From NCBI GenBank assembly GCA_965202985.1, contig CBDBCF010000001.1, forward strand, positions 1,344,001 to 1,408,000: a stretch of 64,000 nucleotides of DNA, in the 5' to 3' direction. Position numbers and translations under genes: made by a program. Positions within the stretch are counted from its first letter, which is position 1, and each line of letters opens with the position of its first letter. The notes beneath the pieces were generated by a model. The model searched no databases. It was not told the DNA's origin and saw only the letters and a list, made by a program, of their open reading frames with translations. This document shows positions 30,970-64,000 of the stretch, piece by piece. This DNA is from Longimicrobiales bacterium. Its GTDB lineage: Bacteria > Gemmatimonadota > Gemmatimonadetes > Longimicrobiales > Gaopeijiaceae.

Positions 30970-33900
30970 CGATCAGCATCCCCCTTGCCTGCAACATGCG
31001 GTTCAGGTCGGCCACTTCGCTCTCCATGAGCGCGTCCAGGGCGGAAAGGTGCTCGCGCAGCATGTCGCGCAGTCGGACCTTCACTTCCAGCTCTTGGTCG
31101 GTAGGGGGGAAGTCCGCGACGGAGATGCCGCCGGTCAGGTAGCCCAGCTTCTGCAGAAGCTTGGCCTCGAAGCGGACGCCGTCCTGTCCCTGTCCCGTGA
31201 GGCGCAGGTCCACCATCTCCATCTGCAGGTCGACCATGCGGCCGTCCAGCGCGGCGATCGCGTCGGCCAGCGCCTGGTCGTCCGCGAAGCGCGCCAAGGT
31301 GGCCAACTGCACGCGCACCGCCTCCACGCGATCCACCGCCATGCCGGCTTCCACGAAATCGGCGCGCACGTCGCGCAGGAACGCCACCTGGGCCGCGATG
31401 TCGGCTTCGCTGCCCGCCGAGTGCGGGTCCTTGATCACGGTCAGGGGCTGTTCGTGGACGGCGTCGCCGACGGTCAGGCGGACGGTGTAGCGACCCGGCG
31501 GCATGAGGATCGCGATCTGCCGAGAGCCGGGGGCAGGGCGTCCTTCGCTGCCGACTGCGATGTGGTCGGCGTAGAGGGGGCTCGTCAATAGCTGGACGGG
31601 CTCGTTAGGCTCGTCGCGGAGGTTCCAGTGCACGCGGTTGACCCCAGGCTGGCCGGGGGCCTCCAACGTGCGCACCACCGCGCCTGCGGCGTCCACGATC
31701 TCGACTAAGGGCGCGGCCTCCTGGTCTTCCGAGCCCTCCGCGGCGGCAGGTGCCAGCCAGTAGTTGATCGACGCGCCGTACTCGGGATCGCGTCCTTCGG
31801 TGGGGTCGCTGTAGGGCACCGACGGCGGCGTGATCGGCCGGAAGCGGTAGGCGTCGCGGGGCGCGAACAAGTGGGACGCGGACGCCACGACTTCGGCCGT
31901 GGCCTGCTGCAACGGCGACAAGTCGTCCAGAATCCAGAAGCCGCGACCGTACGTGCCCACGACCAGGTCGTTGAAGTGTTCTTGGACGACGATCCCCGAC
32001 ACCGGCGCGTGGGGAAGGTTGTTCTGCAGCGGCTGCCAGCTGTCGCCGTGGTCGAAGGAGACGTAGATGGCGTTCTCGGTGCCGGCGTAGAGCAGGCCGG
32101 GCCGCTTCGGGTCCTCCACGACGACTTTGGTGTAGCTGAGCATCGTCGGCGGAATGCCGTCGGTGATCTTGTCCCACGACTGGCCGTAGTCGCGCGTGCG
32201 GTAGAGGTGCGGATCGCGGATGTTGACCTGATGGCCGTCGGCGGCCAGGTAGGCGGTGCCGGCGTCGTGTCGGGACGGGGCGATGCTTCGCACGGCGATC
32301 CATTCCGGCAGCCCGGAGACGTTGGCGGTCACGTCGGTCCACGTAGCGCCGCCGTCGCGGGTCAGATGCACAAGTCCGTCGTTGGTGCCGGCCCAGATCA
32401 GCCCTGCTTCGACGGGCGACTCGGCGATGCCGAACACCGTGCCCGCGTATTCGACGCCGATGTTGTCGCCGGTCAGGCCGCCCGAGAGGCCCATGCGGCT
32501 CTGGTCGTTCAGGGTCAGGTCGGGGCTGATCACCTCCCAGCTCTGGCCGCCGTTTCGCGTGCGGTGCACGTGCTGGCTGCCTACGTAGACCGTGTTGGCG
32601 TCGTGGGGCGAGATGTGGATCGGCGCGTCCCATATGAAGCGGTAGCGCACGCCCGACGCCGCGCCCCGGCTCTGCTCCGGCCACACTTCGACCGACCGGA
32701 ACTGGCGTCGCGCCTCTTCGTAGCGCACCACGATGCCGCCCACCATGCCCGATCCCGAAGCCGACGACCACACAATGTTCGGATCGGTCGGGTCGGGCGT
32801 GGCCCAGCCGCTCTCGCCGCCGCCCACGTGGTGCCACATGCCCCTAGGGATGCCGGTGATGCGGCGCTGTCCCATGATGCGGCTGTTGCTGGGGCCGCGG
32901 TACGTGGGTTCGTCCTGCTTGTTGCCCAGCACGTTGTAGGGGATCGCGTTGTCCACCGTCACGTGGTACATCTGCGCGTTGGTGAGGCGCTGGCGGAACC
33001 AGGACTTCCCTCGATTGCCCGAGATCGACAGCCCTTGGTCGTGGGCCACGATCATGCGGTCGGCGTCGGCCGGGTCGATCCACATGTCGTGATGGTCGCC
33101 CCCCGGCGCCTGGCGACGCGGCACCACGCCCAGCGTGCGCCCGCCGTCGGTGGACACCGCGAACGAAGCGGTCAGGAAGTACGCCTCGTCCTCGTCGGAG
33201 GGCGACACGACCACTCGCGAATAGTAGTGCGGCCTGCCCATCGCGTTGCGGTTGCGCGTGATCAGCGCCCAAGTGCGCCCGCCGTCTTCGGAACGCCAGA
33301 CCTGCCCGTCCTCCGTCTCGCGCCCCTCCCACGGAATGCCGTCGCCCGTTTCGAGCATGGCGTAGACCCGGCGCGGGTTGGACGGCGCGACCGCCACCGC
33401 CACCTTGCCCACCGGCTTCTCGGGCAAGCCGATGCCGTTGTCCGGCCCCGACAGCCGGCGCCACGTGTCCCCGCCGTCGCGCGAGACGTGAAGGCCGCCG
33501 CCCGGTCCGCCGCTGGTGCGCCCCCACGTGTGAATCTCCAGCTGCCACGTGCCCGCGAAGAGGATGCGCGGGTTGGTCGGGTCCATCGCCACGTCGGAGC
33601 AGCCCGTGTCCTCGTCCACGAACAGGACCCGCTCCCAGTTGGCGCCGCCGTCGGTGGTGCGGAAGAGCCCGCGTTCCTGCTGCGGACCGTAGGCGTGGCC
33701 CAGCGCGCACGCGAACACGACGTCCGGGTCCGACGGATGCACCACCAGTCGCGGAATCCGCCCCGTCTGCTCCAACCCCATGAGCGTCCAGGTCCTCCCC
33801 GCGTCCACCGACTTGTAGATGCCCTGCCCGATGGAGACGTGGCTCCGAATCTTCCCTTCCCCCGTGCCGGCCCAGACAATGTTCGGATCGGACGGCGCCA

Positions 33901-34348
33901 CCGCGAGCGCCCCGATCGACTGCACCGGCTGGTCGTCGAAGATCGCGTCCCAGTGCACGCCGCCGTCGGTCGTCTTGTAGACGCCCCCCGAAGCCGCCCC
34001 GACGTAGTACGTGTGCGGATCGCCCGAGATCCCCGCCGCTGCGCTGAACCGGTTCCCCTCCGGCCCGATGTGGCGCCATTCAAGGGCCGTGTAGTCGGCC
34101 GGGGCGGGGGTGGTCTGGGCGGCGAGGGGGGCGGGGATGGGGATGACGAGCGGGAGAGCCGCCGGGGTGGCCAAGAGGGCCAGAGCCGCATGTGTGAAGC
34201 CGCCCTTCGCGAAATTCGGGAGCCGCTGAAGCACGCGGAGCGCCGCGACGAACGCGGACATGGGGGTGCGAACGAGGGCGGCGGGGCTAGGGGTCATGAG
34301 ATGCATGGGCGTCCTTGGGGTTGACGGGCGTTTGTCGGCGAGTCGCAT
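30956..34348 (-). CDS. Large secreted VPS10/sortilin-like BNR-repeat beta-propeller protein (start uncertain)
   Basis: LEWRHIGP, repeated S/T-x-D-G-G-x-T-W Asp-boxes, GDHHDMWIDP, QMYHVTVD, DLVVGTYGRGFWILDD. Confidence 0.88.
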   Translation of the reverse strand: MRLADKRPSTPRTPMHLMTPSPAALVRTPMSAFVAALRVLQRLPNFAKGGFTHAALALLATPAALPLVIPIPAPLAAQTTPAPADYTALEWRHIGPEGNRFSAAAGISGDPHTYYVGAASGGVYKTTDGGVHWDAIFDDQPVQSIGALAVAPSDPNIVWAGTGEGKIRSHVSIGQGIYKSVDAGRTWTLMGLEQTGRIPRLVVHPSDPDVVFACALGHAYGPQQERGLFRTTDGGANWERVLFVDEDTGCSDVAMDPTNPRILFAGTWQLEIHTWGRTSGGPGGGLHVSRDGGDTWRRLSGPDNGIGLPEKPVGKVAVAVAPSNPRRVYAMLETGDGIPWEGRETEDGQVWRSEDGGRTWALITRNRNAMGRPHYYSRVVVSPSDEDEAYFLTASFAVSTDGGRTLGVVPRRQAPGGDHHDMWIDPADADRMIVAHDQGLSISGNRGKSWFRQRLTNAQMYHVTVDNAIPYNVLGNKQDEPTYRGPSNSRIMGQRRITGIPRGMWHHVGGGESGWATPDPTDPNIVWSSASGSGMVGGIVVRYEEARRQFRSVEVWPEQSRGAASGVRYRFIWDAPIHISPHDANTVYVGSQHVHRTRNGGQSWEVISPDLTLNDQSRMGLSGGLTGDNIGVEYAGTVFGIAESPVEAGLIWAGTNDGLVHLTRDGGATWTDVTANVSGLPEWIAVRSIAPSRHDAGTAYLAADGHQVNIRDPHLYRTRDYGQSWDKITDGIPPTMLSYTKVVVEDPKRPGLLYAGTENAIYVSFDHGDSWQPLQNNLPHAPVSGIVVQEHFNDLVVGTYGRGFWILDDLSPLQQATAEVVASASHLFAPRDAYRFRPITPPSVPYSDPTEGRDPEYGASINYWLAPAAAEGSEDQEAAPLVEIVDAAGAVVRTLEAPGQPGVNRVHWNLRDEPNEPVQLLTSPLYADHIAVGSEGRPAPGSRQIAILMPPGRYTVRLTVGDAVHEQPLTVIKDPHSAGSEADIAAQVAFLRDVRADFVEAGMAVDRVEAVRVQLATLARFADDQALADAIAALDGRMVDLQMEMVDLRLTGQGQDGVRFEAKLLQKLGYLTGGISVADFPPTDQELEVKVRLRDMLREHLSALDALMESEVADLNRMLQARGMLIVTDR

Positions 34349-34387
34349 CGTAGAACTGATTGGTTACGAGCTGAGATGGGAAAAGTC

Positions 34388-34469
34388 AAGCCGGGGCGGC
34401 GGGAATCGTGCAGGCGTGGAAGCCGGGGCGGCGGGAATCGTGCAGGCGTGGAACCCGCACCGGCGGGAA
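34388..34469 (+). repeat. 32-bp perfect tandem repeat x2 plus a degenerate partial third copy
   Basis: AAGCCGGGGCGGCGGGAATCGTGCAGGCGTGG at 34388-34419 and 34420-34451, then AACCCGCACCGGCGGGAA. Confidence 0.9.
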
Positions 34470-34553
34470 GAGGAAGATCTCAGCTCAGACGGGATACCGG
34501 GCCACGCCAGACAGATAAGCTCGCCCTCGCCCGAGGTTGTTCCACACCTTGGC

Positions 34554-34582
34554 TTGACCGCCCCCAAAACTACGGTTACCTT
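34554..34582 (+). promoter_or_regulatory. Putative sigma70 promoter of the ParB-nuclease-SNF2 module
   Basis: TTGACC-N17-TACCTT, about 70 nt upstream of ATG 34652. Confidence 0.55.
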
Positions 34583-34651
34583 GCGGGGACCAAGGCGTTC
34601 CCGCTACATTCACCAAGTCTCTGTTCCTCCAACTTTCCGCGAGGCTGCCCA

Positions 34652-35680
34652 ATGTCAGAGAGTTACACGATGCTGGACGTCAACGAGATCGAATTCGACA
34701 CCGACAATCCGAGGATCAAGAAGGCGCTCGAGAAATACGGCGATCGCTTGACCGCCGAGAGGATCCACTTCGCCCTAACCACAGCGGGTACTGCCGCGAC
34801 CGGGGCTTCGTCGTACGCAAGTCTGCGTGATTCCATCCGAGCCGCACGTGGAATCACGATTCCCATTACGGTCGTCACTCGAAACGGCGGCTACACATGC
34901 ATTGACGGTAACACAAGACTCGCCGTCTACAAGGACTTCGTGAGCAAGGGCGAGGAAGGCGACTGGACCACCATCAAGACGATCGTCAGAAGCAACGCAA
35001 AACCCGAGGACATCGAGCGTATTCGAGTATCTGCCCACTTGGTGGGGGCTCGGGAGTGGCCAGCGTACGAGAAGGCGCGCTATTTGCACTACCTCCGCAA
35101 CCAGGAGTTTATGGATTACGGACAAATGATTCAGCTGTGCGGCGGCAACAAGACTGACATAGAACGTCAGATAGAGGCCTACCATGACATGAACCGATTC
35201 TATCGTGATATGGTAGATGACCAAGCATTCAAAATCGATAGATTCAGTGGCTTCGTGGAATTGCAGAAGCCCGGCGTTAAGGAGGCAATATGGACGGCGG
35301 ATTTCGACCTACAGGATTTCGGCAAATGGATCCGGGACGGCAAGATACTTCGGCTACGCGACGTTCGCTGGCTTCCCAAGGTTCTTGACGACCCAGATGC
35401 TAAACAGATATTTCTCGAAGGCGGCCCTAGATCCATAGAGGAAGCAATAAATCTCCTGCGACAGCGCGCAAGGACCACTGCCGCCGAAGCAGGTACCACA
35501 CTGACATCAGCGTCACTATTCCAGTTGGCCGAGGCGCTAGCTCGCAAGGTTGATGAAATGCCCTACTCCGAGGTTCGTGCACTCAAGACGCGGGAGCGAT
35601 CGGAGTTCGACGAAGGCATCGCGACATTGGAACACTTGTCCGCACGTCTCACCGAGCTTCTAGACGATGTCGGAGAGTGA
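34652..35680 (+). CDS. ParB/Srx-like N-terminal domain protein (copy 1)
   Basis: FDTDNPRI, SIRAARGITIPITV, CIDGNTRLA, EWPAYEKA, then an HTH-like helical region. GAGG before ATG 34652. Confidence 0.8.
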   Translation: MSESYTMLDVNEIEFDTDNPRIKKALEKYGDRLTAERIHFALTTAGTAATGASSYASLRDSIRAARGITIPITVVTRNGGYTCIDGNTRLAVYKDFVSKGEEGDWTTIKTIVRSNAKPEDIERIRVSAHLVGAREWPAYEKARYLHYLRNQEFMDYGQMIQLCGGNKTDIERQIEAYHDMNRFYRDMVDDQAFKIDRFSGFVELQKPGVKEAIWTADFDLQDFGKWIRDGKILRLRDVRWLPKVLDDPDAKQIFLEGGPRSIEEAINLLRQRARTTAAEAGTTLTSASLFQLAEALARKVDEMPYSEVRALKTRERSEFDEGIATLEHLSARLTELLDDVGE

Positions 35681-36110
35681 CGTACACCGGTCGCTGGTGC
35701 TCCGAACGGCCAACGCCGTTAGGCAGAAATGCACGCAGTTAGCCACACTCATCACGGACGTACTGGCCAAACCTGGGGATCCTGTTCCGCCACTGGTGGA
35801 GGGATATCGGCCAGACTTATATGGTACTGGCCGTGACAATAGGCTGGTAGTACTTGGTGAGATCGAAACGCTGGCAAGTATGCGATCTCGTCACACCGTT
35901 AGGCAGATTGGAACATTTCTGTGCTATCTCGAGAAACTTTCACTGCATGGATGCCTTGTCTTGGCGGCCGAGGGAAACGGAGCCGATCGTGCTAAGGCGC
36001 TGCTAGGCTTTCTCGTTGCAGAACACTCTATTGAAGTCACTAGTATACTGGTGTACGATGGCTTGGACTTCTGGCACCTTGGCGGTACGGCTCGATGGCG
36101 TTTGCTCTAA
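35667..36110 (+). CDS. Small hypothetical protein, possible PD-(D/E)xK restriction-endonuclease fold
   Basis: N-terminal H-containing helix, GYRPDLY...VVLGEIET (PD...E-x-E). Overlaps both neighbours. Confidence 0.5.
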   Translation: MSESDVHRSLVLRTANAVRQKCTQLATLITDVLAKPGDPVPPLVEGYRPDLYGTGRDNRLVVLGEIETLASMRSRHTVRQIGTFLCYLEKLSLHGCLVLAAEGNGADRAKALLGFLVAEHSIEVTSILVYDGLDFWHLGGTARWRLL

Positions 36111-37585
36111 GGAGACCTCCCCGCCTTGTTGGCAAGCACGATCCCTATCCGTATCAACTTGATGCTGTGCGGGCAATCAGAGGGTTGGAGTACGCAGCCA
36201 TCTTCCATGAACAGGGACTCGGGAAGACGAAGATCGCCATTGATTTGATCCACTCCTGGCTGGAGCAAGATGTGGTTGACACCGTATTCGTAATCACTAA
36301 GAAGTCGTTAGTGAGAAATTGGATGGAAGAAATACGAGCGCATTCGTACTTGACCCCTAGAGTACTATCGACAGATCGGCACCATAACAGCATCGCACTG
36401 AATTCACCAGTGCTCGTCTATGTTCTGAACTACGAAGTGGTTATGGGTAATGCGGAGCTACTTCGGTCCTTCTTGGCAACATGTCGCGTGGCTGCAATCC
36501 TGGACGAGAGCCAGAAGATCAAGAACCCCGAGTCCAGGTTGGCAATATGCTTTCATGACCTTGCAGACTGCTTCGATCGTCGCATAATCATGACAGGAAC
36601 GCCAGTTGCCAATCGCCCATTTGATATTTGGTCCCAAATTAGGTTCTTGGATGGCGGAACGGCACTCGGTAGATCGTTTGCGGCCTTCAGGGCAAGCCAT
36701 GATCTACCGAACAGCGATATTGCAGGTGGCGAATATGGATCTCAGCTGGCGAGGATTATGAATAGAATTCGACAGTTTTCGGTACGGGACACCAAGAGAT
36801 CAGCGGGCATAGAACTTCCAGACAAGACGATCCTCAGTCATCGGGTCGCTTTGGCACCAAGACAGAGAGAGGTGTACGGTGCATATCGAGACCGGCTACG
36901 GCACGACGTATTGGTAGAAGACGGTGAAATGAGGATCGACAGTGCCGAAGAGCTTCTCAAATTGTTGTTGCGGCTCGTTCAATGTGCATCCAATCCGGTC
37001 TTGGTCGACCCGACTTATGATGAGAAGCCGGGCAAGTACAGTAAGCTGAAGGAGATTGTTGGCAGTAGCGATGAAGATGGCAAGGTAATAGTTTGGAGTA
37101 ATTTTGTGGATAATGTAGAATGGTTGGCGAAAGCATTTCAGGACTATCGGCCAACGATTGTTCATGGGCGAATGGCTCTTAGGGACAGAGATCGAGCAGT
37201 AGCGACGTTCAAACATAACGATCGCTGTCGGCTACTTGTTGCCACTCCCGGTGCCGCCAAGGAGGGACTGACACTTACAGTAGCCAATCAAGCGGTGTTT
37301 TATGACCGGAGCTTTAGTCTGGATGACTACATTCAGGCTCAGGACAGGATACATCGCATATCTCAGGTGCGGACCTGCTTTGTTCATAATATGATAGCAG
37401 ACGGTACCATCGACGAGTGGGTTGACCTCTTGCTGAACGCGAAACACCAAGCGGCCCAACTGGCGCAAGGGGACATTGATGAGGCGGAGTTTGGAGCCGC
37501 TTTTGCGTACAACCTACACGAGGCATTGCGGGACATCTTGGCTCCGTCAGAGGGATTAGACGGAACGAAGGACGTCTTTGGGTGA
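36095..37585 (+). CDS. Minimal SNF2/SWI2-family SF2 helicase
   Basis: PYPYQ (Q motif), HEQGLGKT (I), ILDESQKIKN (II), MTGTP (III), KVIVWSNF (IV), AAKEGLTLT (V), QAQDRIHRISQ (VI). Confidence 0.92.
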   Translation: MAFALRRPPRLVGKHDPYPYQLDAVRAIRGLEYAAIFHEQGLGKTKIAIDLIHSWLEQDVVDTVFVITKKSLVRNWMEEIRAHSYLTPRVLSTDRHHNSIALNSPVLVYVLNYEVVMGNAELLRSFLATCRVAAILDESQKIKNPESRLAICFHDLADCFDRRIIMTGTPVANRPFDIWSQIRFLDGGTALGRSFAAFRASHDLPNSDIAGGEYGSQLARIMNRIRQFSVRDTKRSAGIELPDKTILSHRVALAPRQREVYGAYRDRLRHDVLVEDGEMRIDSAEELLKLLLRLVQCASNPVLVDPTYDEKPGKYSKLKEIVGSSDEDGKVIVWSNFVDNVEWLAKAFQDYRPTIVHGRMALRDRDRAVATFKHNDRCRLLVATPGAAKEGLTLTVANQAVFYDRSFSLDDYIQAQDRIHRISQVRTCFVHNMIADGTIDEWVDLLLNAKHQAAQLAQGDIDEAEFGAAFAYNLHEALRDILAPSEGLDGTKDVFG

Positions 37586-37904
37586 CCTGCTCCGCCACAT
37601 CTCATCCTTGAATCCTCGGCCCCCAGCGGCAACCGCGCGGGGCCAGGAGCCCGTGGAACATTAGCCCGTCCTTTGTTGTTTGGAGGTTGAGGGGGGCGGG
37701 TAGATTGGGATGGGGATACCGCCGTCGATGCCGGGGGGGCAGAGGGGTCAAGCGACAACATAGATGAAGCTGTCGGAGGCGTCCGTGGTTAATGTCGAGG
37801 GGGTTCGGGCGCGAGGCTTGTCCTGTGGTTTGGAGTCGGGCCGTCGGTGATCGTGGAGCGGGGTCCAGCTAGTTCAGTGCCTTCCCGAACGAGGAAAAGC
37901 ACTG

Positions 37905-39107
<1,203 letters not shown>

Positions 39108-39111
<4 letters not shown>

Positions 39112-39883
39112 GCCCCGAGCAGCCCTTCGTCGGGGAACGGCGCCGAGGTCGACTGCATGCTCAAGGAACTGCACATGCCCACCATGAAGGACCTGTGGCG
39201 GCCGTTCGCCGACCGGGCCGAGCGCGAACGCTGGTCGCTCGACAACTTCGACTTCGGCCGCCTGCCGGACTGTCCGAACGCTTGGTCCGCGGCCTCGCCA
39301 ACGGAGGCGACTGGATCGACGACGGCCACAACGTCGTCGTCCTCGGCCCGCCCGGCACCGGCAAGAGCCATCTCGCCGCCGGCATCGGCCTCGCCCTCGT
39401 CGAGCGCGGCTACCGCGTCCTCTACGCCCGAGCCACCGACCTCGTGCGGAAGCTCCAAGCCGCACGCCGCGACCTCGCCCTCGAGGCCGGGATCCGACGA
39501 CTCCACAAGTTCCACCTCGTTGTCCTCGACGACATCGCATACGTCGACAACGGACCGCGACGAGACCAGCGCGCTCTTTCGAACTCGTCGGCACGCGCTA
39601 CGAGTACCGCTCGCTCTTGGTCACCACCAACCAGCCGTTCAGCGCATGGGAGCGCATCTTCGCCGACAAGGCCATGACGGTCGCCGCCGTCGACCACCTC
39701 GTCCACCACGCCCACGTCCTCACGCTCGAAGGCGAGAGCTGCCGCCGACAAGAAAAAAGCCGCACGGCTACCCCCGCACAGCACGCCGGCACCACCGACG
39801 ACGACGCGGGCCGTCCCCGAACGCGCCTTCACAGCCCGCCTGGTGACGCTGCCCCCCGCCGCGACAGGGCGGAAGTCCGTTGA
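39108..39883 (+). pseudogene. istB: IS21 helper ATPase, frameshifted and internally deleted
   Basis: MLKELHMPTM; NVVVLGPPGTGKSHLAAG (Walker A); LVVLDDIAY (Walker B); VTTNQPFSAW..IF.DKAMTVAAVDHLVHH. Confidence 0.85.
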
Positions 39884-40344
39884 ACGGCCCCGAATCCGGG
39901 GGTACCACAGGTCGGGTCCGGTCGAATTCTACCTCTAGACGGCCACCAGCAGCCTCAAAACCCGGCCAAGACCGGCCAACTCCTCCGGGGTCACGCCCCT
40001 TCGTCGGCTGTGTGCCACCTCCGAGACCCCGTTCCGCAACCGCCCAAGCCCTCGCCTTGACCCGCTCCCCTTCCGCTACCATCGTTCCCGTCACACGATC
40101 CCGACGGTCTCATCTTGATTGTCGCCAGGGTTTCATTCTGATTGTCGCTCTAGACAGCCTTTGGGTCGTGCGTAAGTCAGTCATCCGTAACGACTTATGA
40201 CTCCCGCGGCGTGAAGTTTCGTCTGGCGGGCTCAGGCGCAGTGAACGATCGCTAACCCATCGTCCACGGATCAGGTCCTGCTCCCAACCGGCGGCGGGCG
40301 GTTTTGGCGACCCCCCTTTAAGAAGGTGCCTGACGCCTTCAGGG

Positions 40345-40373
40345 TTGCTTGGAGCCTTCGGCTACGTTAGAGT
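40345..40373 (+). promoter_or_regulatory. Putative sigma70 promoter of the ParB-rSAM-GHKL module
   Basis: TTGCTT-N17-TAGAGT, about 140 nt upstream of ATG 40512. Confidence 0.45.
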
Positions 40374-40511
40374 GTTGACCGTCCGACACTCCTTCCATCC
40401 TCCGGCAAGGCAAGCCGACCTAACAGGTGCCTTTCATCTTCTCGTCAATCATCCTGTCGAGACGCCGGCTCCCCGGGCCGTCTGGCGCCTTTACTTGAAA
40501 CAGCTCACTCC

Positions 40512-41519
40512 ATGACCCAACCAGAAATTACGATCCACAGCACAAGGATACCCTGCACGGACGACAAATGGCGAACTGACCGGCTGGTCTTCCTGAGCGA
40601 AAACCCGCGCGTCTATTCCTCCATTGCTGACATTCCTGACTTCGACGACCTGCATGATGACCAGAAGCAACAGGTGATCTATCGTCAGCTGCTCAAAGAA
40701 CGGAGCGTCAGGACGCTGATTCCAGACATTCGTGATAACGGCGGCTTGATCGAACCAATTCTCGTGCGTGCCGACACACGAGAAGTTGTCGAGGGTAATT
40801 CCCGTCTCGCTGCCTACAGGCACCTGTATAGCGAATCCAAAGACGAAAAATGGAATACTATTCCCTGCCGACTCGTATCAAGCCTCACCGATGACCAGCT
40901 AGCAGCGCTGCTTCACTCTATACATGTCAAAGGCAAGACGTCCTGGACAACGTATGAGAAGGCCCACTTTACCTATCTCCAACACAAGAAGGGCAAGAGA
41001 ATCGAAGATATCGCAAAGCTGTTTTCGATATCAACATCGAAGGCCTATCAGGATGTCCGGATTATAAAAGCGATGAAAGAGAACAGTGACTCCGATCGTG
41101 CGCACTTCAGCTACTACAGCGTACTCAAGACAAGCTTGAGGAAGGAACTCCGGGACAACACCCAGCTGGAGTCTGCACTCTTGTCGATGATTCGGCGTCC
41201 TGACGACGGTGGCGATCACCATCCGCCATTTACAGCCCAGAACCTACGCGACCAACTGCCAGTGGTACTTCGGAAGCCCAAGATTCTACGCAAGTTCGTG
41301 AAAGGGGAGATCACCCTTGACACCGCTCATGACAGAGCCAAAATCAGCGATACTCAGTCTAAAATGAAGCGAGTTCGTGGACTTCTTAATGACGTGACGC
41401 ACGAGGAGCTACGAGAACTTGGTCAACCAGCCAAGAAAGCCGTTGACTACGAGTGCCGCAAGGTACAGAAGGAGCTCTCCCGCATCCAGAAAATGCTCGC
41501 CAAGATGATGTCCTCATGA
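40512..41519 (+). CDS. ParB/Srx-like N-terminal domain protein (copy 2)
   Basis: FLSENPRV, DIRDNGGLIEPILV, VVEGNSRLAAY, SWTTYEKA, then an HTH-like IEDIAKLFSIS segment. Confidence 0.82.
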   Translation: MTQPEITIHSTRIPCTDDKWRTDRLVFLSENPRVYSSIADIPDFDDLHDDQKQQVIYRQLLKERSVRTLIPDIRDNGGLIEPILVRADTREVVEGNSRLAAYRHLYSESKDEKWNTIPCRLVSSLTDDQLAALLHSIHVKGKTSWTTYEKAHFTYLQHKKGKRIEDIAKLFSISTSKAYQDVRIIKAMKENSDSDRAHFSYYSVLKTSLRKELRDNTQLESALLSMIRRPDDGGDHHPPFTAQNLRDQLPVVLRKPKILRKFVKGEITLDTAHDRAKISDTQSKMKRVRGLLNDVTHEELRELGQPAKKAVDYECRKVQKELSRIQKMLAKMMSS

Positions 41520-43141
41520 GTGGTCATCGCATCCTGCTTGTAGAACCCGGATACAGAAACAAGTACCCACCGCTTGGCCTGATGAAGATAGCCGCGTATC
41601 ACGGACTCGAAGGCCGTGGGGATACGGTTAGATTTGTAAAAGGCGAGAACTCAGAAGTACTTGCTGAGGTCTGGGATCGAGTATACGTTACAACGTTGTT
41701 TAGTTTTGAATGGACCCGGACAGCACGAGCGATCGATTTTGCAATCCGAGCCGCTGGTGGCCAAAACGAACGGGTATTTGTGGGCGGTATTGCGGCATCT
41801 TTGATGCATGACGATTATGTGTCAGAACCTCGATGGTCGGGCGTTAGATTTGTTAAAGGATTGCTAGACGGTCCTCCCGCGACCGCCTTAATGTTGTCGG
41901 AAGACAACTGTGATTTTGGCGCGGACGACGTATCGAGTCTGCCAATAGAAAGAAACGTGCCAGATTACGGAATACTAGACCACATCGAATACAAGTACCC
42001 CGTACACGATGCCTACTTTGGTTACGCTTCGCGCGGATGCGTCCGAAAATGCTCCTTTTGCGGCGTTCCGGCGTTGGAAGGTGGACTTCGAGAGATGCCG
42101 CCGCTTTCGAACCTAGTGCACGGAATCGCGCAGGTACATGGACCCAAGAAGGATCTGATATTGATGGACAATAATGTCACAGCATCTTCCCGATACAAAG
42201 AGATTATCGCTGAAATCAGGGACCTGGGCTTTGTCCGTGGTGCCCGGGTAGAGGCTAACGGCACGAAGCCAGCCGTCAAGCGGCGGGTGGACTTTAATCA
42301 GGGCGTAGATGCCCGTATTCTGGCGAAATCTCCGATGTACCTTCGAGAAATGGCTACGATATGCATTGATCCGCTGAGGATCGCCTTTGATCATCTAGGC
42401 GTTCGGAGAGTCTATGAGACGGCAATAAACATGGCGGCAGATAACGGTATTACGTCTCTGTCCAACTATATGCTCTACAATTTTATGGATACACCAATTG
42501 ACTTGTACACACGAATGGCTTTGAACATTCAACTTAATGAGAGTCTTGGAATTCGCATCTGGTCGTTTCCGATGCGATATCAGCCGGTTACGCTTCGGGA
42601 TCGTTCTCACGTCGGCAAGAACTGGAATTGGTATTACCTCCGTTCATTTCAGATTATGCTACAAGCTACTCACGGAGTTGTGAGTGGCAACCCAGCATTC
42701 TTTCGCCGAGCTTTCGGGGAAGACCAAGATCGCTTTCTCGAACTTCTTGGAATGCCGCACGCGTTTATTTTCTTCCGAGAATACTACGAGGCTGGCGGCG
42801 GCACGGCGGTGCGAGAAGAATATGAGGCATTGCGTAAACGGCTGACGTCTAGTCAGCGGAAGGAATTGCTTGGCATGGTGCTTGGCCAACATGTGCATCG
42901 AGGCCGTGACGAGTTTCTCAGAAGAACGAAGGATCGACAAATTGACCGTCAAGTGAGAAAGATCTTACGTTTTTATGCGCTGGACACCAAAGAACGATCC
43001 AAGCTCGAGGGTCAGAAAATTTTGGCAGACACTGAAGACCTAGCGCCCGGCATGCCGGATGCAGAACGCAGGGTCGAGGACGCAGGGTTGTACGACGACG
43101 GACCGGCAACCGGTGGTCGCCTAGTTGCGTTAGCGACATGA
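41516..43141 (+). CDS. Radical SAM enzyme with a B12-binding-like N-terminal Rossmannoid domain
   Basis: RILLVEP..NKYPPLGLMKIAAYH; ASRGCVRKCSFC (CxxxCxxC); LMDNN, VDFNQGVDAR, LRIAFD, YMLYNF.DTP.DLY.R, FPMRYQP. ATGA overlap with ParB-2. Confidence 0.88.
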   Translation: MSGHRILLVEPGYRNKYPPLGLMKIAAYHGLEGRGDTVRFVKGENSEVLAEVWDRVYVTTLFSFEWTRTARAIDFAIRAAGGQNERVFVGGIAASLMHDDYVSEPRWSGVRFVKGLLDGPPATALMLSEDNCDFGADDVSSLPIERNVPDYGILDHIEYKYPVHDAYFGYASRGCVRKCSFCGVPALEGGLREMPPLSNLVHGIAQVHGPKKDLILMDNNVTASSRYKEIIAEIRDLGFVRGARVEANGTKPAVKRRVDFNQGVDARILAKSPMYLREMATICIDPLRIAFDHLGVRRVYETAINMAADNGITSLSNYMLYNFMDTPIDLYTRMALNIQLNESLGIRIWSFPMRYQPVTLRDRSHVGKNWNWYYLRSFQIMLQATHGVVSGNPAFFRRAFGEDQDRFLELLGMPHAFIFFREYYEAGGGTAVREEYEALRKRLTSSQRKELLGMVLGQHVHRGRDEFLRRTKDRQIDRQVRKILRFYALDTKERSKLEGQKILADTEDLAPGMPDAERRVEDAGLYDDGPATGGRLVALAT

Positions 43142-43142
43142 G

Positions 43143-44675
43143 GTGCAAGCGTTGGCACGGCTAGAGATCGAACGATACGTCGGCTCCTCGGAGCCGGTTT
43201 TGGGTGATCAGGTCCTTGGGATCATTACTTCTGCAATGTACGACAGTCCCTTGGCGGTGTATCGGGAGTATATTCAGAATTCCGCTGACGCATTGGCTAG
43301 TTTGGATTTGCGTAGCCGGGGAGCGGTAGACGTGTCAGTCGACCCGCGTCGACAGCGCATTGAGATTCGTGATAACGGCCCCGGACTGTCCGAAGAAATG
43401 GCCGTTCGTACTTTAGTGCCGATTGCGACTAGCCGAAAGCGGCAAGAAGGCGGCCGGGGGTTTCGGGGCATAGGTAGGTTGTGTGGCTTAGCGTTCGCGG
43501 AGTCGGTTACGTTCCGTACGCGGGCAGACGGTGCCCAGGACGTAACGCAGATCAAGTGGAGCGGACCGGAACTCCGGGCTCATATAGGACGAACTGGGCA
43601 TACGGCGCATTCGGTGCGAGAGTGCGTAGAAGTAACGACAGAGGCCGGGGATGGGTTTCCCGAGCATTTTTTTTCGGCGACCGTGGAGGGGGTGCATCGG
43701 CATGCAGCTGGAGCTCTGCTGAATCGCGAAACGGTTCGGGCATACATAGGCGAGGTATGCCCAGTGCCAATCGCCGAGTCATTTCCTTTTGTGGCGGATG
43801 TCAGGAGATTGTTTGCTGATGGTGAGACGCCCCTAGCGCTGACAGTATCGTTGACCAAAGATGCGAGACCGATTTGTCGACCGCTAGGGAAAGAGCTGCG
43901 TCTCTCAATGCATCGTGTTGATCGCTTTAGAGATTTTGAGGAGATTCGGATATCGTCGCTCGATAAGGCTACGATTGCGGCAGTCGGATGGATTGCTCAT
44001 TCGTCATATATGGGTGCGTTGCCGAAGAGGTTGGGCATTAGGGGCATGCGAGTCCGTGCCGGGAACATTCAGATCGGTGGTGAGGACGTATTTGACCATC
44101 TTTTTGATCAGGAACGCTTTAATCGGTGGTGTGTAGGTGAGATTCATGTTACGGATAGTCGAATTGTACCAAATGGTCGCCGGGATTATTTTGAAGCAAG
44201 TCCACATCTGAGGAATCTAGAGAATCACCTGTCGGTCTTATTCCGAAACATTACGGCACGGTGCCGCCTAGCATCCAAGAAACGTAATCGTATGCGGAGA
44301 TTTGAGGCAGACGTGGACAACATCGAAAATTGGTATCGTCTTGTGGCATCGGGGTGGCTTGCTCAGAATGAAGCATTAAAGTTAGCTATCAAGGTTCGAG
44401 AACAAGCGAGTCGGCTAGCGGAGAAGATTGAGGCATTAGACCGAGGGGCCGGGAACGTAGCAACCAGACTTCGAGCAGTCACAGATGATCTACGGGATTT
44501 CAACGGACCCAGTCAACGGCCGTTAGTGCCCATGACGAAAGCGGAACAACGAGCGTACCAACGCGCATTTCTTGCGATCATTGAGGCGACGAACTCGCCG
44601 CGGACGGCACTGAGGGCAATTGAAGCTGTGGTTGATAGAATGGGATCGGAGGAGAGGCGGAGGAGAAAGGTGTAG
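43143..44675 (+). CDS. GHKL (Hsp90/MutL/MORC-like) ATPase with a C-terminal coiled coil
   Basis: MYDSPLAVYREYIQNSADA (N box), IRDNGPG (G1), GFRGIGRL (G2); S5-like region GMRVRAGNIQIG...VGEIHV...IVPNGRRDYFE. Starts 1 nt after the rSAM stop. Confidence 0.85.
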   Translation: MQALARLEIERYVGSSEPVLGDQVLGIITSAMYDSPLAVYREYIQNSADALASLDLRSRGAVDVSVDPRRQRIEIRDNGPGLSEEMAVRTLVPIATSRKRQEGGRGFRGIGRLCGLAFAESVTFRTRADGAQDVTQIKWSGPELRAHIGRTGHTAHSVRECVEVTTEAGDGFPEHFFSATVEGVHRHAAGALLNRETVRAYIGEVCPVPIAESFPFVADVRRLFADGETPLALTVSLTKDARPICRPLGKELRLSMHRVDRFRDFEEIRISSLDKATIAAVGWIAHSSYMGALPKRLGIRGMRVRAGNIQIGGEDVFDHLFDQERFNRWCVGEIHVTDSRIVPNGRRDYFEASPHLRNLENHLSVLFRNITARCRLASKKRNRMRRFEADVDNIENWYRLVASGWLAQNEALKLAIKVREQASRLAEKIEALDRGAGNVATRLRAVTDDLRDFNGPSQRPLVPMTKAEQRAYQRAFLAIIEATNSPRTALRAIEAVVDRMGSEERRRRKV

Positions 44676-45027
44676 ATTGGCATCCTCTGCTGTTTCATAT
44701 GGAGAATTGGAAATCCAGCTTGCCGCATACATCGCTCGAGATGTGCGTCTGCAGGGACATCAGATCCATCTGGTACGCTTGCACCGTTTCCGGGGCGATC
44801 CGCGACGGGTCCAGCAAGCTCGTCCGGCCACGTCCGCTTCCGGGGTCGCAGACAACTCCGGGCGGCCCGTCAGGTACGCCACGTTACCCGATTCGGAGTC
44901 GCCGAGGTGCGGGCGCTTGATCCCGGGGGGCTTGCGTACCGGCGACTGCCCGTGAACTATGGACCCAGCCACTTCGGGAGCCCTTACGGGCCCGTCTCGA
45001 TAAGTTCCTCCCAATCCTATCAGTCAA

Positions 45028-46977
45028 ATGCCGTTCGCTCTGCTATCCGTCAGGCCATCCATAGGGAGCGTCTTCCTTGGGAGCACGCTCCGAACCACCG
45101 CCCTCGCTGTAACGGCCGCTGCGTTCACCAGCACCATCACGACTTCCCTTGCGTCCCCAGCCGCCACCTCCGCCCAGACCCACCCCGTTGTCGAGAACGG
45201 CCAGGCCCAGGTCGTCCCCGCCTTTGCCGACTCGACCGCGTGGATTCGGCACGAACTCTGGGTCGAGACCGAGTTCGACACCGACGGGGACGGTCGGCTG
45301 GACCGGGTGCACGCGGACGTGACGCGACCGGCGCAGACCGACGCCGACGGGCTCAAGGTGGCCGTGGTGTACGAGACCAGCCCCTACTACTCGGGCACGG
45401 CGGGGATCGACTTCGACCACTTCTGGAACTTGCGTCAGGAGGTGGGTGAAGCGCCGCCGGAGCGGAACCCGTATCCGGCCACGATTGGCCATCGTGCCAG
45501 CCAGCCGGTCATCTCGCGGTCGCATGTGGCCACTTGGGTGCCGCGGGGATTCGCGGTCATGCACTCGCAATCGCCGGGGACGGGGCAGTCCCAGGGGTGC
45601 CCAACCGTGGGCGGGGCCAACGAGTCGCTAGCGCCCAAGGCGGTGATCGACTGGCTGAACGGGCGGGCGCGGGGCTTCTCCACGGTGGACGGGGACGAAG
45701 AGGTGGAGGCGTACTGGGCCACGGGGAAGGTCGGCATGACGGGCACGTCCTACAACGGCACGCTGCCCTTGGCGGCCGCCACGACGGGCGTGGACGGGCT
45801 CGAGGCGATCATCCCCGTGGCGCCCAACACGTCGTACTACCACTACTATCGATCCAACGGGCTGGTGCGGTCGCCGGGCGGGTACCCGGGCGAAGACATC
45901 GACGTGTTGTTCGACTTCATCTTCAGCGGCTTCCCCGAGTCGCGGGACTATTGCGTCGCCCAGGTGCGCGAGGCAGAAATGCGGCCGAACCAGGATCGAG
46001 CGACGGGCGACTACAACGACTTCTGGGCGGGGCGCGACTACCTCAACCACGTGGACGGCGTGAAGGCGGCAACGCTGATGAGCCACGCATTCAACGACTG
46101 GAACGTCATGCCCGAGCACAGCTTCCGGATCGCCGAAGCGCTGAAGGCCAACGGCGTGCCCGTGCAAGTGTACTATCACCAAGGGGGCCACGGCGGTCCG
46201 CCGCCGTTGGAGCTCATGAACCGCTGGTTCACGCGCTACGTGCTGGGCGTCGAGAACGGCGTGGAGGATGACCCGCGCGCCTGGATCGTGCGCGAAGGCG
46301 ACGACCGCGAGCAGCCCACGCCCTACGCCGCCTACCCGAACCCCGAGTCCGAAGGCGTGGCGCTGCATCCGACCGGCGACGGCAACTGGACGGGCGTGTT
46401 GTCGTTCGCCGCAGACGGAGCGGGACCGGAAGCGGACGCCGGGGCGGGGCTCGGTGCGCTGGTCGACAACTTCTCGTTCGGTGGCGGCGACTTGGCGGCA
46501 GCCGAGTGGTCGAACCACCGCCTGCTGTACGCGACTCCCGTCTTGCGCGAGGACGTGCATTTGTCGGGCGTGGCCAAAGTGCGGGTTCGGGTGGCGGCGG
46601 ACGCGGCGGCGGCCAACCTGTCCGTGTGGCTGGTGTCGTTGCCGTGGACCAACAGCGAGTCGATCAACGACGACGTGATCACGCGAGGCTGGGCCGATCC
46701 CCAGAACGCCGGCGCACAAGACATCTCGGCGCCGCGCGGCGGAAGCGACCTCGGGCCGGGCCAGTTCGTCGAGATGGAGTTCGACCTGCAGCCCGACGAC
46801 CAGATCGTTCCCGCGGGCGCCCGCATTGGCCTCATGATCTTCTCCAGCGACAAGGACTTCACGTTGCACCCCGATCCGGGCACTGCGCTGGAAGTCGACT
46901 TGAGCGGCACGAGCATCGAGTTGCCGGTCGTCGGCGGGCGTCGAGCGCTGGCGCGGGCCTTGCGGCCAGTGAGCTGA
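45028..46977 (+). CDS. Xaa-Pro dipeptidyl-peptidase (S15, PepX-like), secreted
   Basis: DTDGDGRLDRV, ETSPY, GTSYNG nucleophile, DWNV, QGGH, ITRGWADPQN. Confidence 0.9.
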   Translation: MPFALLSVRPSIGSVFLGSTLRTTALAVTAAAFTSTITTSLASPAATSAQTHPVVENGQAQVVPAFADSTAWIRHELWVETEFDTDGDGRLDRVHADVTRPAQTDADGLKVAVVYETSPYYSGTAGIDFDHFWNLRQEVGEAPPERNPYPATIGHRASQPVISRSHVATWVPRGFAVMHSQSPGTGQSQGCPTVGGANESLAPKAVIDWLNGRARGFSTVDGDEEVEAYWATGKVGMTGTSYNGTLPLAAATTGVDGLEAIIPVAPNTSYYHYYRSNGLVRSPGGYPGEDIDVLFDFIFSGFPESRDYCVAQVREAEMRPNQDRATGDYNDFWAGRDYLNHVDGVKAATLMSHAFNDWNVMPEHSFRIAEALKANGVPVQVYYHQGGHGGPPPLELMNRWFTRYVLGVENGVEDDPRAWIVREGDDREQPTPYAAYPNPESEGVALHPTGDGNWTGVLSFAADGAGPEADAGAGLGALVDNFSFGGGDLAAAEWSNHRLLYATPVLREDVHLSGVAKVRVRVAADAAAANLSVWLVSLPWTNSESINDDVITRGWADPQNAGAQDISAPRGGSDLGPGQFVEMEFDLQPDDQIVPAGARIGLMIFSSDKDFTLHPDPGTALEVDLSGTSIELPVVGGRRALARALRPVS

Positions 46978-54326: not shown

Positions 54327-55697
54327 GTGAACGCGATTCGGCTCAAGAACTTCCGCTGCTTCGGGGACGAGCAGGAGGTTCCGCTCGCGCCGTTGACGTT
54401 GCTCGTCGGTGAGAACAGCACCGGCAAGACGTCGTTCATGGCAGCGATTCGGGCGTTGTGGGACATATTCTACCGCGAGCGCGTCCCCGACTTCAAGGAA
54501 CAGCCGCACGACCTGGGCAGCTTCGGGGACATTGTCCATTCGCCCACAAAGGATGCTGCTTCGCATCGTCCTCACTTCGAGTTTGGCTTGGCGTATTCGG
54601 CCGAAGGCGATTCGCCGAGCGCTCCTTACCAAGGTCGGTTTGACGTCTCGTTCGGCAAGAACGGCGCCGCACCGACACCGGTGCGAATGACGCTTTCCGA
54701 TGCCGAGCGGAAGGTTTGGGTCGAGTACAGCCAAGATGATGATTCGTGGCGGGTCTCCGTCGGCACGCCTCAGGGAATTTGGCGTCCAAGTCCAGAGGGC
54801 AAGCCACCGGTGATTCATGCAGATCGGATATGGCCGTTCTTCGTAGTCATGGACATCTACAGGAGAGGCAACACAGTGAACGCCCGGATCGAAGATGAAG
54901 AACCGTTACTTCGCGACTTACAAGGTCGATCCACCGCAATCGAGTCAGATACCTGGGAAATGATCGAACAACTTTGCAGATCACAGTATAGCCAAGATTT
55001 TTTTGACAAGACGCGCTATGCAAGCGCACCCGTGAGGTCTAAGCCTCGACGGACGTATGATCCTTCGCGTGTTATCCACGACCCGGAAGGAGGCGATACA
55101 CCGACGTACTTGGGCAATTTGGCGCTCCAGCGCAAGAGCAAGTGGACATCACTAAGCAGGGCACTCGCCCGATTTGGTGTCGATTCTGGTCTTTTCGAAG
55201 AACTTACGGTACGTTCCTTTGGCGATACCGCGAGTGATCCTTTTCAGCTTCAAATCAAAGAAACCAATTCTGGAACTGGTAGCCCACTGCGCAATCTTGC
55301 AGACGTTGGCTACGGCGTTAGTCAAGTGTTGCCCGTGGTGACCGAACTCCTGCGTCCCGAAGCCCCACCTGCGTTCTTGTTGCAGCAACCCGAAGTTCAT
55401 CTGCATCCGAGTGCACAGGCCGCCCTGGGCAGCTTGTTCTGTCAAGCCGCACGACCGGGCAAGTTGCTCATTGTCGAAACCCACAGCGACTATCTCTTGG
55501 ATCGCATACGGATGGATCTTCGAGATGACAAGACAGACTTGCGACCTCAAGACGTGGCAATATTGTTTTTTGAGCGAATAGACAGAGCTGTGCGTATTCA
55601 TCGATTAACGTTCGATAAAGAGGGTAACATCTTAAATGCGCCGAGTAGCTATCGTGCTTTCGTCATGCAAGAAATGCAAAGATCGCTGGGACTGTGA
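54327..55697 (+). CDS. ABC-superfamily (AAA_15/AAA_21, DUF3696-type) ATPase
   Basis: IRLKNFRCF, GENSTGKT (Walker A), LADVGYGVSQVLPV (signature), LLQQPEVHLHP (degenerate Walker B/D-loop), IVETHS (H-loop), DKEGNI C-terminus. Confidence 0.85.
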   Translation: MNAIRLKNFRCFGDEQEVPLAPLTLLVGENSTGKTSFMAAIRALWDIFYRERVPDFKEQPHDLGSFGDIVHSPTKDAASHRPHFEFGLAYSAEGDSPSAPYQGRFDVSFGKNGAAPTPVRMTLSDAERKVWVEYSQDDDSWRVSVGTPQGIWRPSPEGKPPVIHADRIWPFFVVMDIYRRGNTVNARIEDEEPLLRDLQGRSTAIESDTWEMIEQLCRSQYSQDFFDKTRYASAPVRSKPRRTYDPSRVIHDPEGGDTPTYLGNLALQRKSKWTSLSRALARFGVDSGLFEELTVRSFGDTASDPFQLQIKETNSGTGSPLRNLADVGYGVSQVLPVVTELLRPEAPPAFLLQQPEVHLHPSAQAALGSLFCQAARPGKLLIVETHSDYLLDRIRMDLRDDKTDLRPQDVAILFFERIDRAVRIHRLTFDKEGNILNAPSSYRAFVMQEMQRSLGL

Positions 55698-55703
55698 AGA
55701 GTC

Positions 55704-56165
55704 GTGTGCGCTATTGTTGACGCCAATGTCGCGTCGGCGATGTTTCGACCAGATCGCTCGAATGCCGCGTCGGCCTTCTTCGAGTGGATCAATGCCGGGT
55801 CCGGTCGATTGATTGGCGGAGGCAAACTGCGTACGGAACTTGGTTTATTGGATTCGTTCAGGGAGTGGCAACGAGAAGCGATTCTTGCGGGACGTATTCG
55901 CAACTACAGCGACGATGAAATCGAAATACAAACGGGTATCGTCAAGAACACAGGATTGTGTCGGTCGGACGACGAACACATCATTGCATTGGCTCAGGTC
56001 AGTGGTGCTCGCTTGTTGTATTCGCATGACAAGCGGTTGCATGAGGATTTTAGAAACCCGGAATTGGTCAAGAAACCGCGTGGAAAAATCTACTCAACCC
56101 TAACTGGCACAAAGCTTCGAGACAGCCACAAGCAACTTCTTCGCCAGAGTTCGTGCAGGAAGTAG
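55704..56165 (+). CDS. PIN-domain protein
   Basis: AIVDANV, ELG, SDDEHIIALA, LYSHDKRL: the acidic PIN pattern. Confidence 0.75.
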   Translation: MCAIVDANVASAMFRPDRSNAASAFFEWINAGSGRLIGGGKLRTELGLLDSFREWQREAILAGRIRNYSDDEIEIQTGIVKNTGLCRSDDEHIIALAQVSGARLLYSHDKRLHEDFRNPELVKKPRGKIYSTLTGTKLRDSHKQLLRQSSCRK

Positions 56166-62048: not shown

Positions 62049-62070
62049 CCCGGCTTCCTGGCGAGACGAC

Positions 62071-63522: not shown

Positions 63523-63543
63523 CGTAGACCGAGGTCGGTAGCA

Positions 63544-64000
63544 ATGTTGCCCGCCGAGAAGACGCACTACCGCAAAGGCCTGACGCTCGGGCTGACGCTG
63601 GCGGAGACGTTTAGCGTGGTGGTCTTTGTCCTGCTCTTAGCGTTTGCACTGGTGCTGCGCACCGAGAACGACTCTCGCGTTGAGGCTGAAGAGCAACTTG
63701 GCGAGGCCGAGACGCAGTTGGCGCGCCGCAACCAGATGCTGAACCCCGGCGACACATTGGGTGGCAGTTGGTACCGTTACGCCCAACAGTTGAATGACTC
63801 GCTGGAGGACACACGAGACCGCGCGGGGGTGGCGGAGGCCGAGCTTGCCCAGGCACGTTCCCTGCTGGAAGCGAGGTTGGGACAGCAAGAAGTCGACTCG
63901 CTTCTGGAGCGGTCCAGGGAGCTGGAGACCGCTCGCGATTCCGTGGAGCGGGTCAAGAATTTGTTGGAAACTCTGGAAACCGAACGGGACTCGCTGATCA
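63544..64000 (+). CDS. MotB/ZorB-like single-pass protein, truncated by window end
   Basis: Absent from the ORF track. GAGGT RBS; manual translation MLPAEKTHYRKGLTLGLTLAETFSVVVFVLLLAFALVLR... followed by coiled coil, open to the end. TLAE resembles the MotB T-x-A-D motif. Confidence 0.6.
   Translation, partial: MLPAEKTHYRKGLTLGLTLAETFSVVVFVLLLAFALVLRTENDSRVEAEEQLGEAETQLARRNQMLNPGDTLGGSWYRYAQQLNDSLEDTRDRAGVAEAELAQARSLLEARLGQQEVDSLLERSRELETARDSVERVKNLLETLETERDSLI

Follow-up and report, generated by a model that had tools for sequence, protein, structure and literature searches.

The window, a 64,000-nucleotide stretch of a Longimicrobiales bacterium genome (contig CBDBCF010000001.1, forward-strand positions 1,344,001 to 1,408,000), carries six plus-strand genes between positions 34652 and 44675 that encode two ParB-like proteins, a predicted PD-(D/E)xK-type nuclease, an SNF2-family ATPase, a radical S-adenosylmethionine (SAM) enzyme and an Hsp90-like GHKL ATPase. 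They belong to an apparently undescribed system that is widespread, modular and mobile, and whose unit is a radical SAM-GHKL core joined to a swappable module. The system very probably serves defence of some kind. The reading that accounts for it best, adopted here with modest confidence, is a defence resembling AbiR or restriction-modification (R-M) in which the radical SAM enzyme would place a mark on host DNA.

Conservation was assessed over 84 loci from 10 phyla, made up of the best 80 of 211 GTDB matches and 4 of 12 plasmids. The GHKL gene stands alongside the radical SAM gene in 82 of them. A complete set of ParB1, nuclease, SNF2 and ParB2 is present in 56, of which 34 follow the order of the window and are nearly always contiguous, 12 place a DGQHR gene before the radical SAM gene and 10 are rearranged. 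The identical six-gene order recurs in locus L270 of a far more distant clade, other members of which are arranged as NurA-HerA-GHKL-radical SAM. The sequence-only reading had divided the six genes into two triplets, each led by a ParB gene. Since SNF2 and ParB2 adjoin each other in 50 of the 51 loci where they share an orientation, the triplets of the window result from a split, and the natural division is one of four genes plus the two-gene core. Both halves occur together in relatives that lack the insertion sequence (IS) found between them in the window.

The remaining partners of the core pair comprise at least four alternatives of nuclease type. Among the 84 loci, DGQHR proteins appear in 27, a PIN protein with a second GHKL in 17, large DndB-HEPN proteins in 9, and NurA-HerA with a second GHKL in 8, the HerA label being given from context and recall with no library match. 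In loci L027, L066, L081 and L084, a further partner module was seen in which a PP_RS20740-like protein (NF047698, below cut-off) lies beside a divergent GHKL. In a tree of the 84 radical SAM proteins, the 10 phyla are intermixed and the module label changes 18 times; this is a quick tree with SH-aLRT support only. The radical SAM family is large, unannotated and modular: 7859 of 8000 scored candidates match at E ≤ 1e-10, and 430 clusters (50% identity) match at E ≤ 1e-30.

The dependence between module and core runs one way. When metagenomes were searched with the ParB1 alignment, a radical SAM gene lay close by in 46 of 80 loci and the remaining 34 had less than 2.5 kb of flank on one side, so that among contigs of sufficient length the ParB module was found without radical SAM in 0 of 46. 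One of the 34 short-flank loci, L114, holds only ParB1 and a nuclease stub. On plasmids, radical SAM accompanies ParB1 in 6 of 6 and GHKL in 12 of 12, and 7 of the 12 GHKL-bearing plasmids are conjugative. Because the system is present on plasmids of culturable Rhizobium and Novosphingobium, the claims made for it are directly testable; Rhizobium leguminosarum pR132505 (RLEG_RS34150–34110) and Novosphingobium pNL1 carry intact copies.

The radical SAM enzyme (41516–43141, 541 aa) is part of the conserved core and is the proposed modifier. The assignment made in the sequence-only reading is upheld by a radical SAM domain match (E = 2e-5), a partial TIM barrel and a CxxxCxxC motif whose cysteines C175, C179 and C182 are invariant in 78 of 78 members; C283 is also conserved. 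That reading was right to single out the enzyme as the likely modifier and had overlooked a B12-binding-type domain at its amino terminus. The predicted model (predicted local distance difference test, pLDDT = 84) is composed of a Rossmann domain, a barrel and a helical tail. Its best folds are MgmA (Z = 20.9, root-mean-square deviation (RMSD) 4.1, 325 residues aligned), AprD4 (Z = 20.2, RMSD 3.9, 358 aligned) and TsrM (Z = 19.2), together with MiaB, and residues 3–136 superimpose on AerR with a Z of 9.7 (RMSD 2.9, 116 aligned). A Rossmann domain, a radical SAM barrel with CxxxCxxC and a helical C-terminal domain are common to MgmA, TsrM, TokK, CysS, OxsB and AprD4, to which the window enzyme is at most 17% identical. 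Across aligned relatives the identity is 54–85%. Searches of PDB sequences returned weak RimO and MgmA matches only, and the phage family PHROG 9298 matches the enzyme with an E of 2e-35. In the methylthiotransferases MiaB and RimO, a second Fe-S cluster is held by three cysteines conserved at the N-terminus. These extra cysteines are missing here, the only N-terminal cysteine of the window protein (C132) being present in 36% of rows. Within the low-confidence tail, 77 of 85 close relatives and 0 of 75 distant ones retain the motif VEDAGL (residues 518–525; window 43067–43090); it lies outside the modeled GHKL interface and may dock another partner.

The adjoining GHKL ATPase (43143–44675, 510 aa) is the core partner of the radical SAM enzyme and was earlier described as MORC-like. 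The GHKL part of that description stands. HATPase_c_3 is matched with an E of 3e-10, and the ATP-binding motifs ExxxN (E42, N46), DxGxG (D77, G79, G81) and GxxGxG (G106, G109, G111) are conserved over 63 rows, with E42, N46, D77, G79 and G106–G111 invariant. The MORC part does not stand, as the best solved relatives are HtpG and Hsp90 and the MORC S5-domain motif, given as GhXhhpXXRhl in an excerpt of PMC2292703, is missing. The likely S5 strand reads GLRARxGNIQ, with no arginine at the ninth place in a consensus inspected by eye. In a model of the complex, the GHKL helix 354–372 sits on the Rossmann domain of the radical SAM enzyme with a score of 0.66, compared to 0.46 for the best control; the mark applied to this score is reached by 116 of 157 solved pairs and by 2 of 215 mismatched pairs. 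At least 94% of contacts recur between runs, the partner pLDDT is 81, and the helix residues H355 and N361 are 92–95% conserved and were not seen in the second GHKL paralogue. From the model, binding of the radical SAM enzyme to GHKL is marginally predicted.

The four-gene module begins with ParB1 (34652–35680, 342 aa), which has NPR and GNTR motifs, a helix-turn-helix (HTH) and a helical carboxy terminus, and ends in relatives with ParB2 (40512–41519, 335 aa). The two are old, full-length paralogues (hhalign probability 99.9 over 298 columns) in which NPR and GNxR are invariant, and each has a ParB/Noc/KorB-like N-terminal domain followed by an HTH. A ParB N-terminal domain with a GxxR box, joined to an HTH, is the sequence signature of ParB CTPase clamps, and both proteins show it. 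The ParB assignment holds by both model and profile: the ParB1 model matches ParB/Noc/KorB (Foldseek E = 3.6e-7) and the pNOB8-like ParB 5k5d (Z = 9.4, RMSD 4.0, 194 aligned), and the ParB1 profile matches Helicobacter pylori ParB (E = 9e-4). None of the 50 conserved columns of ParB1 shows a departure in the window. An alignment of the ParB2 and DGQHR profiles was not obtained (probability 0.5), so the common fold of the two rests on library labels. The SNF2 gene (36095–37585) encodes a compact ATPase of 496 aa that is clearly of this family, as had been noted (PF00176 E = 1.1e-25, PF00271 E = 6.7e-18).

The second gene (35667–36110) encodes a minimal, predicted PD-(D/E)xK-type nuclease of 147 aa. 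The family carries the expected motif, PD followed by EAK, and P49, D50, E65 and K67 occur without exception in 56 relatives; the earlier assignment is correct for the family, and the clade of the window reads E-I-E in place of E-x-K. The nearest named Atlas clusters are PD-(D/E)xK families at 0.87, which serves as a lead only, and a search of the nuclease profile against the PDB gave no meaningful match. A sequencing error or recent decay was rejected as the origin of K67E, as matching public contigs and eight homologues share E67. Since these eight are 49–90% identical, E67 is a kept trait of the clade. An E-x-E site is active in BamHI. From its sequence, the nuclease of the window would be either a BamHI-like variant or an inactive scaffold.

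The six genes are intact and foreign to the genome. Their reading frames are all open at the coordinates first assigned to them, with overlaps of 14, 16 and 4 nt and a 1-nt gap, exactly as originally counted. The lower GC content noticed at the outset is borne out as well, the hand counts of 27/60 and 43/60 being exact: the six genes have a GC of 0.51–0.55 and a GC3 of 0.51–0.64, compared to 0.68–0.70 and 0.88–0.91 for flanking genes and a genome-wide GC of 0.686. Public contigs from three studies show 0–1 differences to the gene parts that they cover, the unusual nuclease codons included; the best-matching run may come from the source sample itself. No RNA run was listed as containing the stretch. 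A sigma70-like promoter had been proposed for each triplet. This proposal is not sustained, as a promoter scan (6 sites overall, 4.5 ± 1.8 expected) placed no site upstream of either half, where bare TTGACC hexamers alone occur at 34554 and 40375. An Rfam search of 33000–46000 at gathering thresholds gave no match.

The two halves are parted by a frameshifted, multi-copy IS relic on the plus strand (approximately 37747–40165), a late insertion that lies outside the system. It is IS21-like by IstA/IstB-like motifs judged by eye; pieces of it match other sites in the same genome, and it has a GC of 0.689, a high depth and indels relative to the other copies. The claim that this relic alone separates the halves is true of the relic and incomplete, since about 500 nt of unique DNA around it also part them; these intergenic pieces match nothing elsewhere in the genome or in 343 loci. 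The distance from the SNF2 stop to the ParB2 stop is thereby 3934 nt in the window, compared to 743–1092 nt in 50 of 51 relatives. Comparable splits occur in loci L020 and L032, and L031 carries ParB2, radical SAM and GHKL only. With its split and its clade-specific nuclease variant, the window copy departs somewhat from the typical member.

Three congeners keep the flanking genes in synteny, and the locus is a cassette acquired into a slot whose content varies. One congener holds a type II restriction endonuclease (PADLOC E = 2e-39) and a methyltransferase (E = 3e-104) in the same slot, the second an open reading frame (ORF) without assignment and a ParA-like gene, and the third almost nothing. 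The radical SAM gene is present in 1 of 60 relatives and in 0 of the 3 congeners. Within the same phylum it is matched, partially, in 2 of 300 genomes, and within another phylum in 1 of 400, not counting the seed genome. The repeats listed include no clean terminal inverted repeats or target duplication for either the island or the IS. By the left edge of the island, an exact 32-nt tandem duplication occupies 34388–34451, and similarity to the congener G001 stops at 34396.

According to the favoured DNA-mark reading, the Hsp90-like ATPase (together with the ParB-fold protein where present) would hold the radical SAM enzyme in position while that enzyme writes a mark on host DNA. Most simply, the mark would be a cobalamin-dependent methylation at a carbon beyond the reach of ordinary methylases. 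A ParB1/ParB2 clamp, the SNF2 motor and the PD-(D/E)xK nuclease would scan DNA and, if the mark is absent, cut it or kill the cell. The PIN, NurA-HerA and DndB-HEPN nuclease modules would plug into the same core. This reading is favoured because a single conserved enzyme serves nuclease modules that are unrelated to one another, and because the ParB module was not encountered without that enzyme. It is also favoured because methylase-motif ORFs, by a crude scan, occur in only 2 of the 84 loci and distant members of the family stand in methylase-like positions. The type II R-M pair in the equivalent slot of a congener is counted toward it as well.

Three distant loci provide these methylase-like positions. 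On the prophage-like contig of L280 (8364–11617), a PD-lambda-5A homologue (E = 8e-72) is followed by a distant radical SAM gene with no methylase between, then by an ImmA peptidase and a recombinase. A PD-lambda-5A homologue also directly precedes radical SAM in L277 (7894–11620), again on a prophage-like contig. In L267 (2999–14729), DISARM DrmA and DrmB, a NERD-UvrD protein, radical SAM, GHKL and an Mrr-type nuclease form one run. PD-lambda-5 is a compact system of R-M and abortive infection type that includes a methyltransferase, as set out in PMC9519451.

A fusion of DGQHR and radical SAM, P0208, is a further ground for the DNA-mark reading. Phage relatives add to it through clusters of ParB-like gene, radical SAM and terminase. 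The intermediate-clade phage loci (L287, L289–L292 and L294–L297; n = 9, two nearly identical) have a ParB-like gene directly upstream in 7 and a Pfam-confirmed terminase just downstream in 6, and L296 adds an MT-A70 methylase downstream. The ParB call is made with a profile from three of the nine loci, one of which matches Pfam ParB_N with an E of 1e-8. Phage relatives carry neither GHKL nor effector. Fusions to DNA methylases are common among phage ParB folds (excerpts of PMC12704722), and one phage ParB activates a DNA dioxygenase, 5mYOX (excerpts of PMC13229309). In Marinitoga camini virus 1 (L099, 4992–8818), a member of the family converges on herA- and nurA-like genes.

AbiR provides a precedent for the proposed dependence and is a further ground for the DNA-mark reading, since its ParB-like and nuclease-SNF2 subunits are toxic without the methylase. 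It is encoded in two loci on the Lactococcus plasmid pKR223 (PMC13064643). Compared by domain class, the likeness lies in a ParB-like subunit that matches PDB 5K5D, as ParB1 does, and in the nuclease-SNF2 subunit. AbiR, as described there, combines a single ParB with a fused nuclease, a subunit of sigma70-like type and the ordinary methylase LlaKR2I; the window, in contrast, has two ParB paralogues, a separate mini PD-(D/E)xK protein, no sigma-like gene, and radical SAM and GHKL instead of a methylase.

Several observations weigh against the DNA-mark reading. The operon is split in the window copy, and the family lysine of the nuclease is lost locally, K67 being present in 66 of 75 homologues; the window and the 8 homologues nearest to it have E67 instead. 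The complex score lies exactly at the margin, and the control at 0.46 is one that retains GHKL. None of the best-fold enzymes acts on DNA, the substrates being a protein for MgmA, an aminoglycoside for AprD4, tryptophan for TsrM and tRNA for MiaB, by entry titles and general knowledge; nor is any of MgmA, TsrM, TokK, CysS, OxsB and AprD4 known to act on DNA or in defence. A D12 methylase lies 8 kb from the L280 genes on the opposite strand, the L277 contig stops just after radical SAM, and L267 is cut, so cases of methylase substitution are few. The short phage relatives (PHROG 9298; 110 loci, or 39 groups after reduction) are not enriched for adjacent methylases (6/74 versus 3/61, p = 0.51), and this adjacency was dropped as evidence. 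Finally, a ParB-fold gene is found in 0 of the 8 NurA-HerA loci; the ParB partner is therefore not obligatory, and the notion that radical SAM always needs a ParB was discarded.

The use of cobalamin is a separate question. The Pfam B12-binding domain (PF02310) is matched in 7 of 78 members, all below cut-off, which also speaks against the mechanism as drawn, and AprD4 has a B12-binding-type fold without cobalamin. The host genome encodes two B12-binding-domain proteins. Given the weak Pfam matches, cobalamin-dependent modification in particular is offered only tentatively.

It is doubtful, and compatible with the DNA-mark reading, that the local copy is partly disabled, with the halves uncoupled by the IS, the nuclease dead and the marking core alone at work. 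The IS and extra DNA within the four-gene module would agree with this, as would the departures of the window at near-invariant positions (K67E and D71S in the nuclease, R290L in SNF2). On the other hand, all six frames are open, E67 is a trait of the clade with a possible parallel in the active site of BamHI, and departures in the remaining genes are within the range of the family.

An unlikely alternative is a small-molecule defence in which the radical SAM enzyme would make or alter a nucleotide by viperin-like or AprD4-like sugar radical chemistry, and ParB or DGQHR domains would sense it and switch the nucleases. AprD4, a diol dehydratase, ties for best fold, and a ParB-fold gene lies immediately upstream of radical SAM in 59 of the 84 loci. 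ParB-fold proteins bind CTP, ATP or GTP, a preference that is unreadable from sequence (PMC12704722). Such a defence leaves unexplained the methylase-like slots, in L280 and in the phage ParB-terminase clusters, and the need for a GHKL partner, and the NurA-HerA loci lack the ParB-fold sensor.

It is similarly improbable that the substrate is a protein or RNA. The Hsp90-like ATPase would then present a client, for example a phage protein or the toxic nuclease of the system itself, and the radical SAM enzyme would methylate this client in the manner of MgmA, serving as an antitoxin. The top fold is a protein methylase, the GHKL protein is nearest to HtpG/Hsp90 and lacks the MORC motif, and a one-way dependence of effectors is compatible with any antitoxin. 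However, a single enzyme of such high identity serves unrelated effectors, which is better fit by a shared substrate such as DNA, and the phage relatives carry neither GHKL nor effector.

A role apart from antiviral defence, whether as a cassette by which mobile elements selfishly secure their maintenance or addict the host, or in ParB-based partition or regulation, would suit the plasmid carriage, the resemblance of both ParBs to clamps such as KorB and the very patchy distribution, but is most unlikely, as ParA is outside the conserved gene set (a ParA-like cluster, labeled by motif, occurs in only 4 of 84 loci), the partners are nucleases, and relatives adjoin DISARM, AbiEii and PD-lambda-5A genes in defence-like rather than metabolic or plasmid-partition contexts, although addiction and defence can coexist.

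The sequence-only reading recognized no named system and no DNA methylase among the six genes, and both points are confirmed: no system of PADLOC-DB 2.0 or NCBIfam 20 is matched in the required combination. In PADLOC-DB 2.0 the nuclease, radical SAM and GHKL proteins have no match, the ParBs match only PDC-M38A, weakly (E = 1e-5 and 4e-4), and SNF2 matches ZorD, DpdE, DrmD and BrxHI over the helicase core only and far below NCBIfam cut-offs. The literature searched contains no description of the system, although an in-silico mention in supplements or in further Aravind-group papers is possible.

The system resembles AbiR, PD-lambda-5, MORC-type R-M and Dnd/Dpd and fails a defining feature of AbiR, MORC and Dnd/Dpd. 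The likeness to PD-lambda-5 is seen in L280, where the A-protein homologue has a ParB-type N-terminal domain (hhalign 83.7 with ParB2) and is followed by the distant radical SAM; the window proteins, however, match none of the PD-lambda-5 models. MORC and paraMORC R-M operons, as described in PMC2292703, share a GHKL ATPase, an SNF2 helicase, a restriction-fold nuclease and lateral mobility with the window. They differ in having DNA methylases or Vsr, whereas the ATPase of the window is Hsp90-like, and the words 'radical' and 'ParB' occur nowhere in that paper. Dnd/Dpd systems combine a non-methylase modifier, an ATPase and a ParB-fold DGQHR protein with exchangeable nucleases (excerpts of PMC10853773), and DGQHR/DpdB-like proteins accompany radical SAM in the 27 loci counted above; the six genes, in contrast, include no homologue of DndC/D/E or DpdA/C, and the window version has no DGQHR. 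The 5mYOX enzymes share with the phage ParB-radical SAM-terminase clusters the pairing of a ParB-fold protein with a post-replicative DNA-modifying enzyme. Their chemistry is that of Fe/2OG dioxygenases, and 'radical' does not occur in PMC13229309.

Should the DNA-mark reading be correct, the known self marks of bacteria, which comprise methylation, phosphorothioation, 7-deazaguanine and a few others, would be joined by a radical SAM chemistry that may escape ordinary methylome surveys, and vitamin B12 would be tied to phage defence. It is possible, if speculative, that the system represents a new chemical class of self mark that is interchangeable with DNA methylases across several defence architectures and that phages, as part of the same picture, reuse as a ParB-activated, packaging-linked modifier for counter-defence.

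Two other islands were noted in the window. At 54327–56165, two low-GC genes resemble a defence or toxin-antitoxin pair of their own: one encodes a 456-aa ABC-type ATPase (AAA_21/AAA_15), and the other is a 153-aa ORF whose start is PIN-like when judged by eye. A lower-GC run at 59681–64000 encodes membrane and coiled-coil proteins (among them 517, 273 and 556 aa), for which Pfam matches are nearly absent; the run might, as a guess, be a MotA/OmpA- or Zorya-like island.

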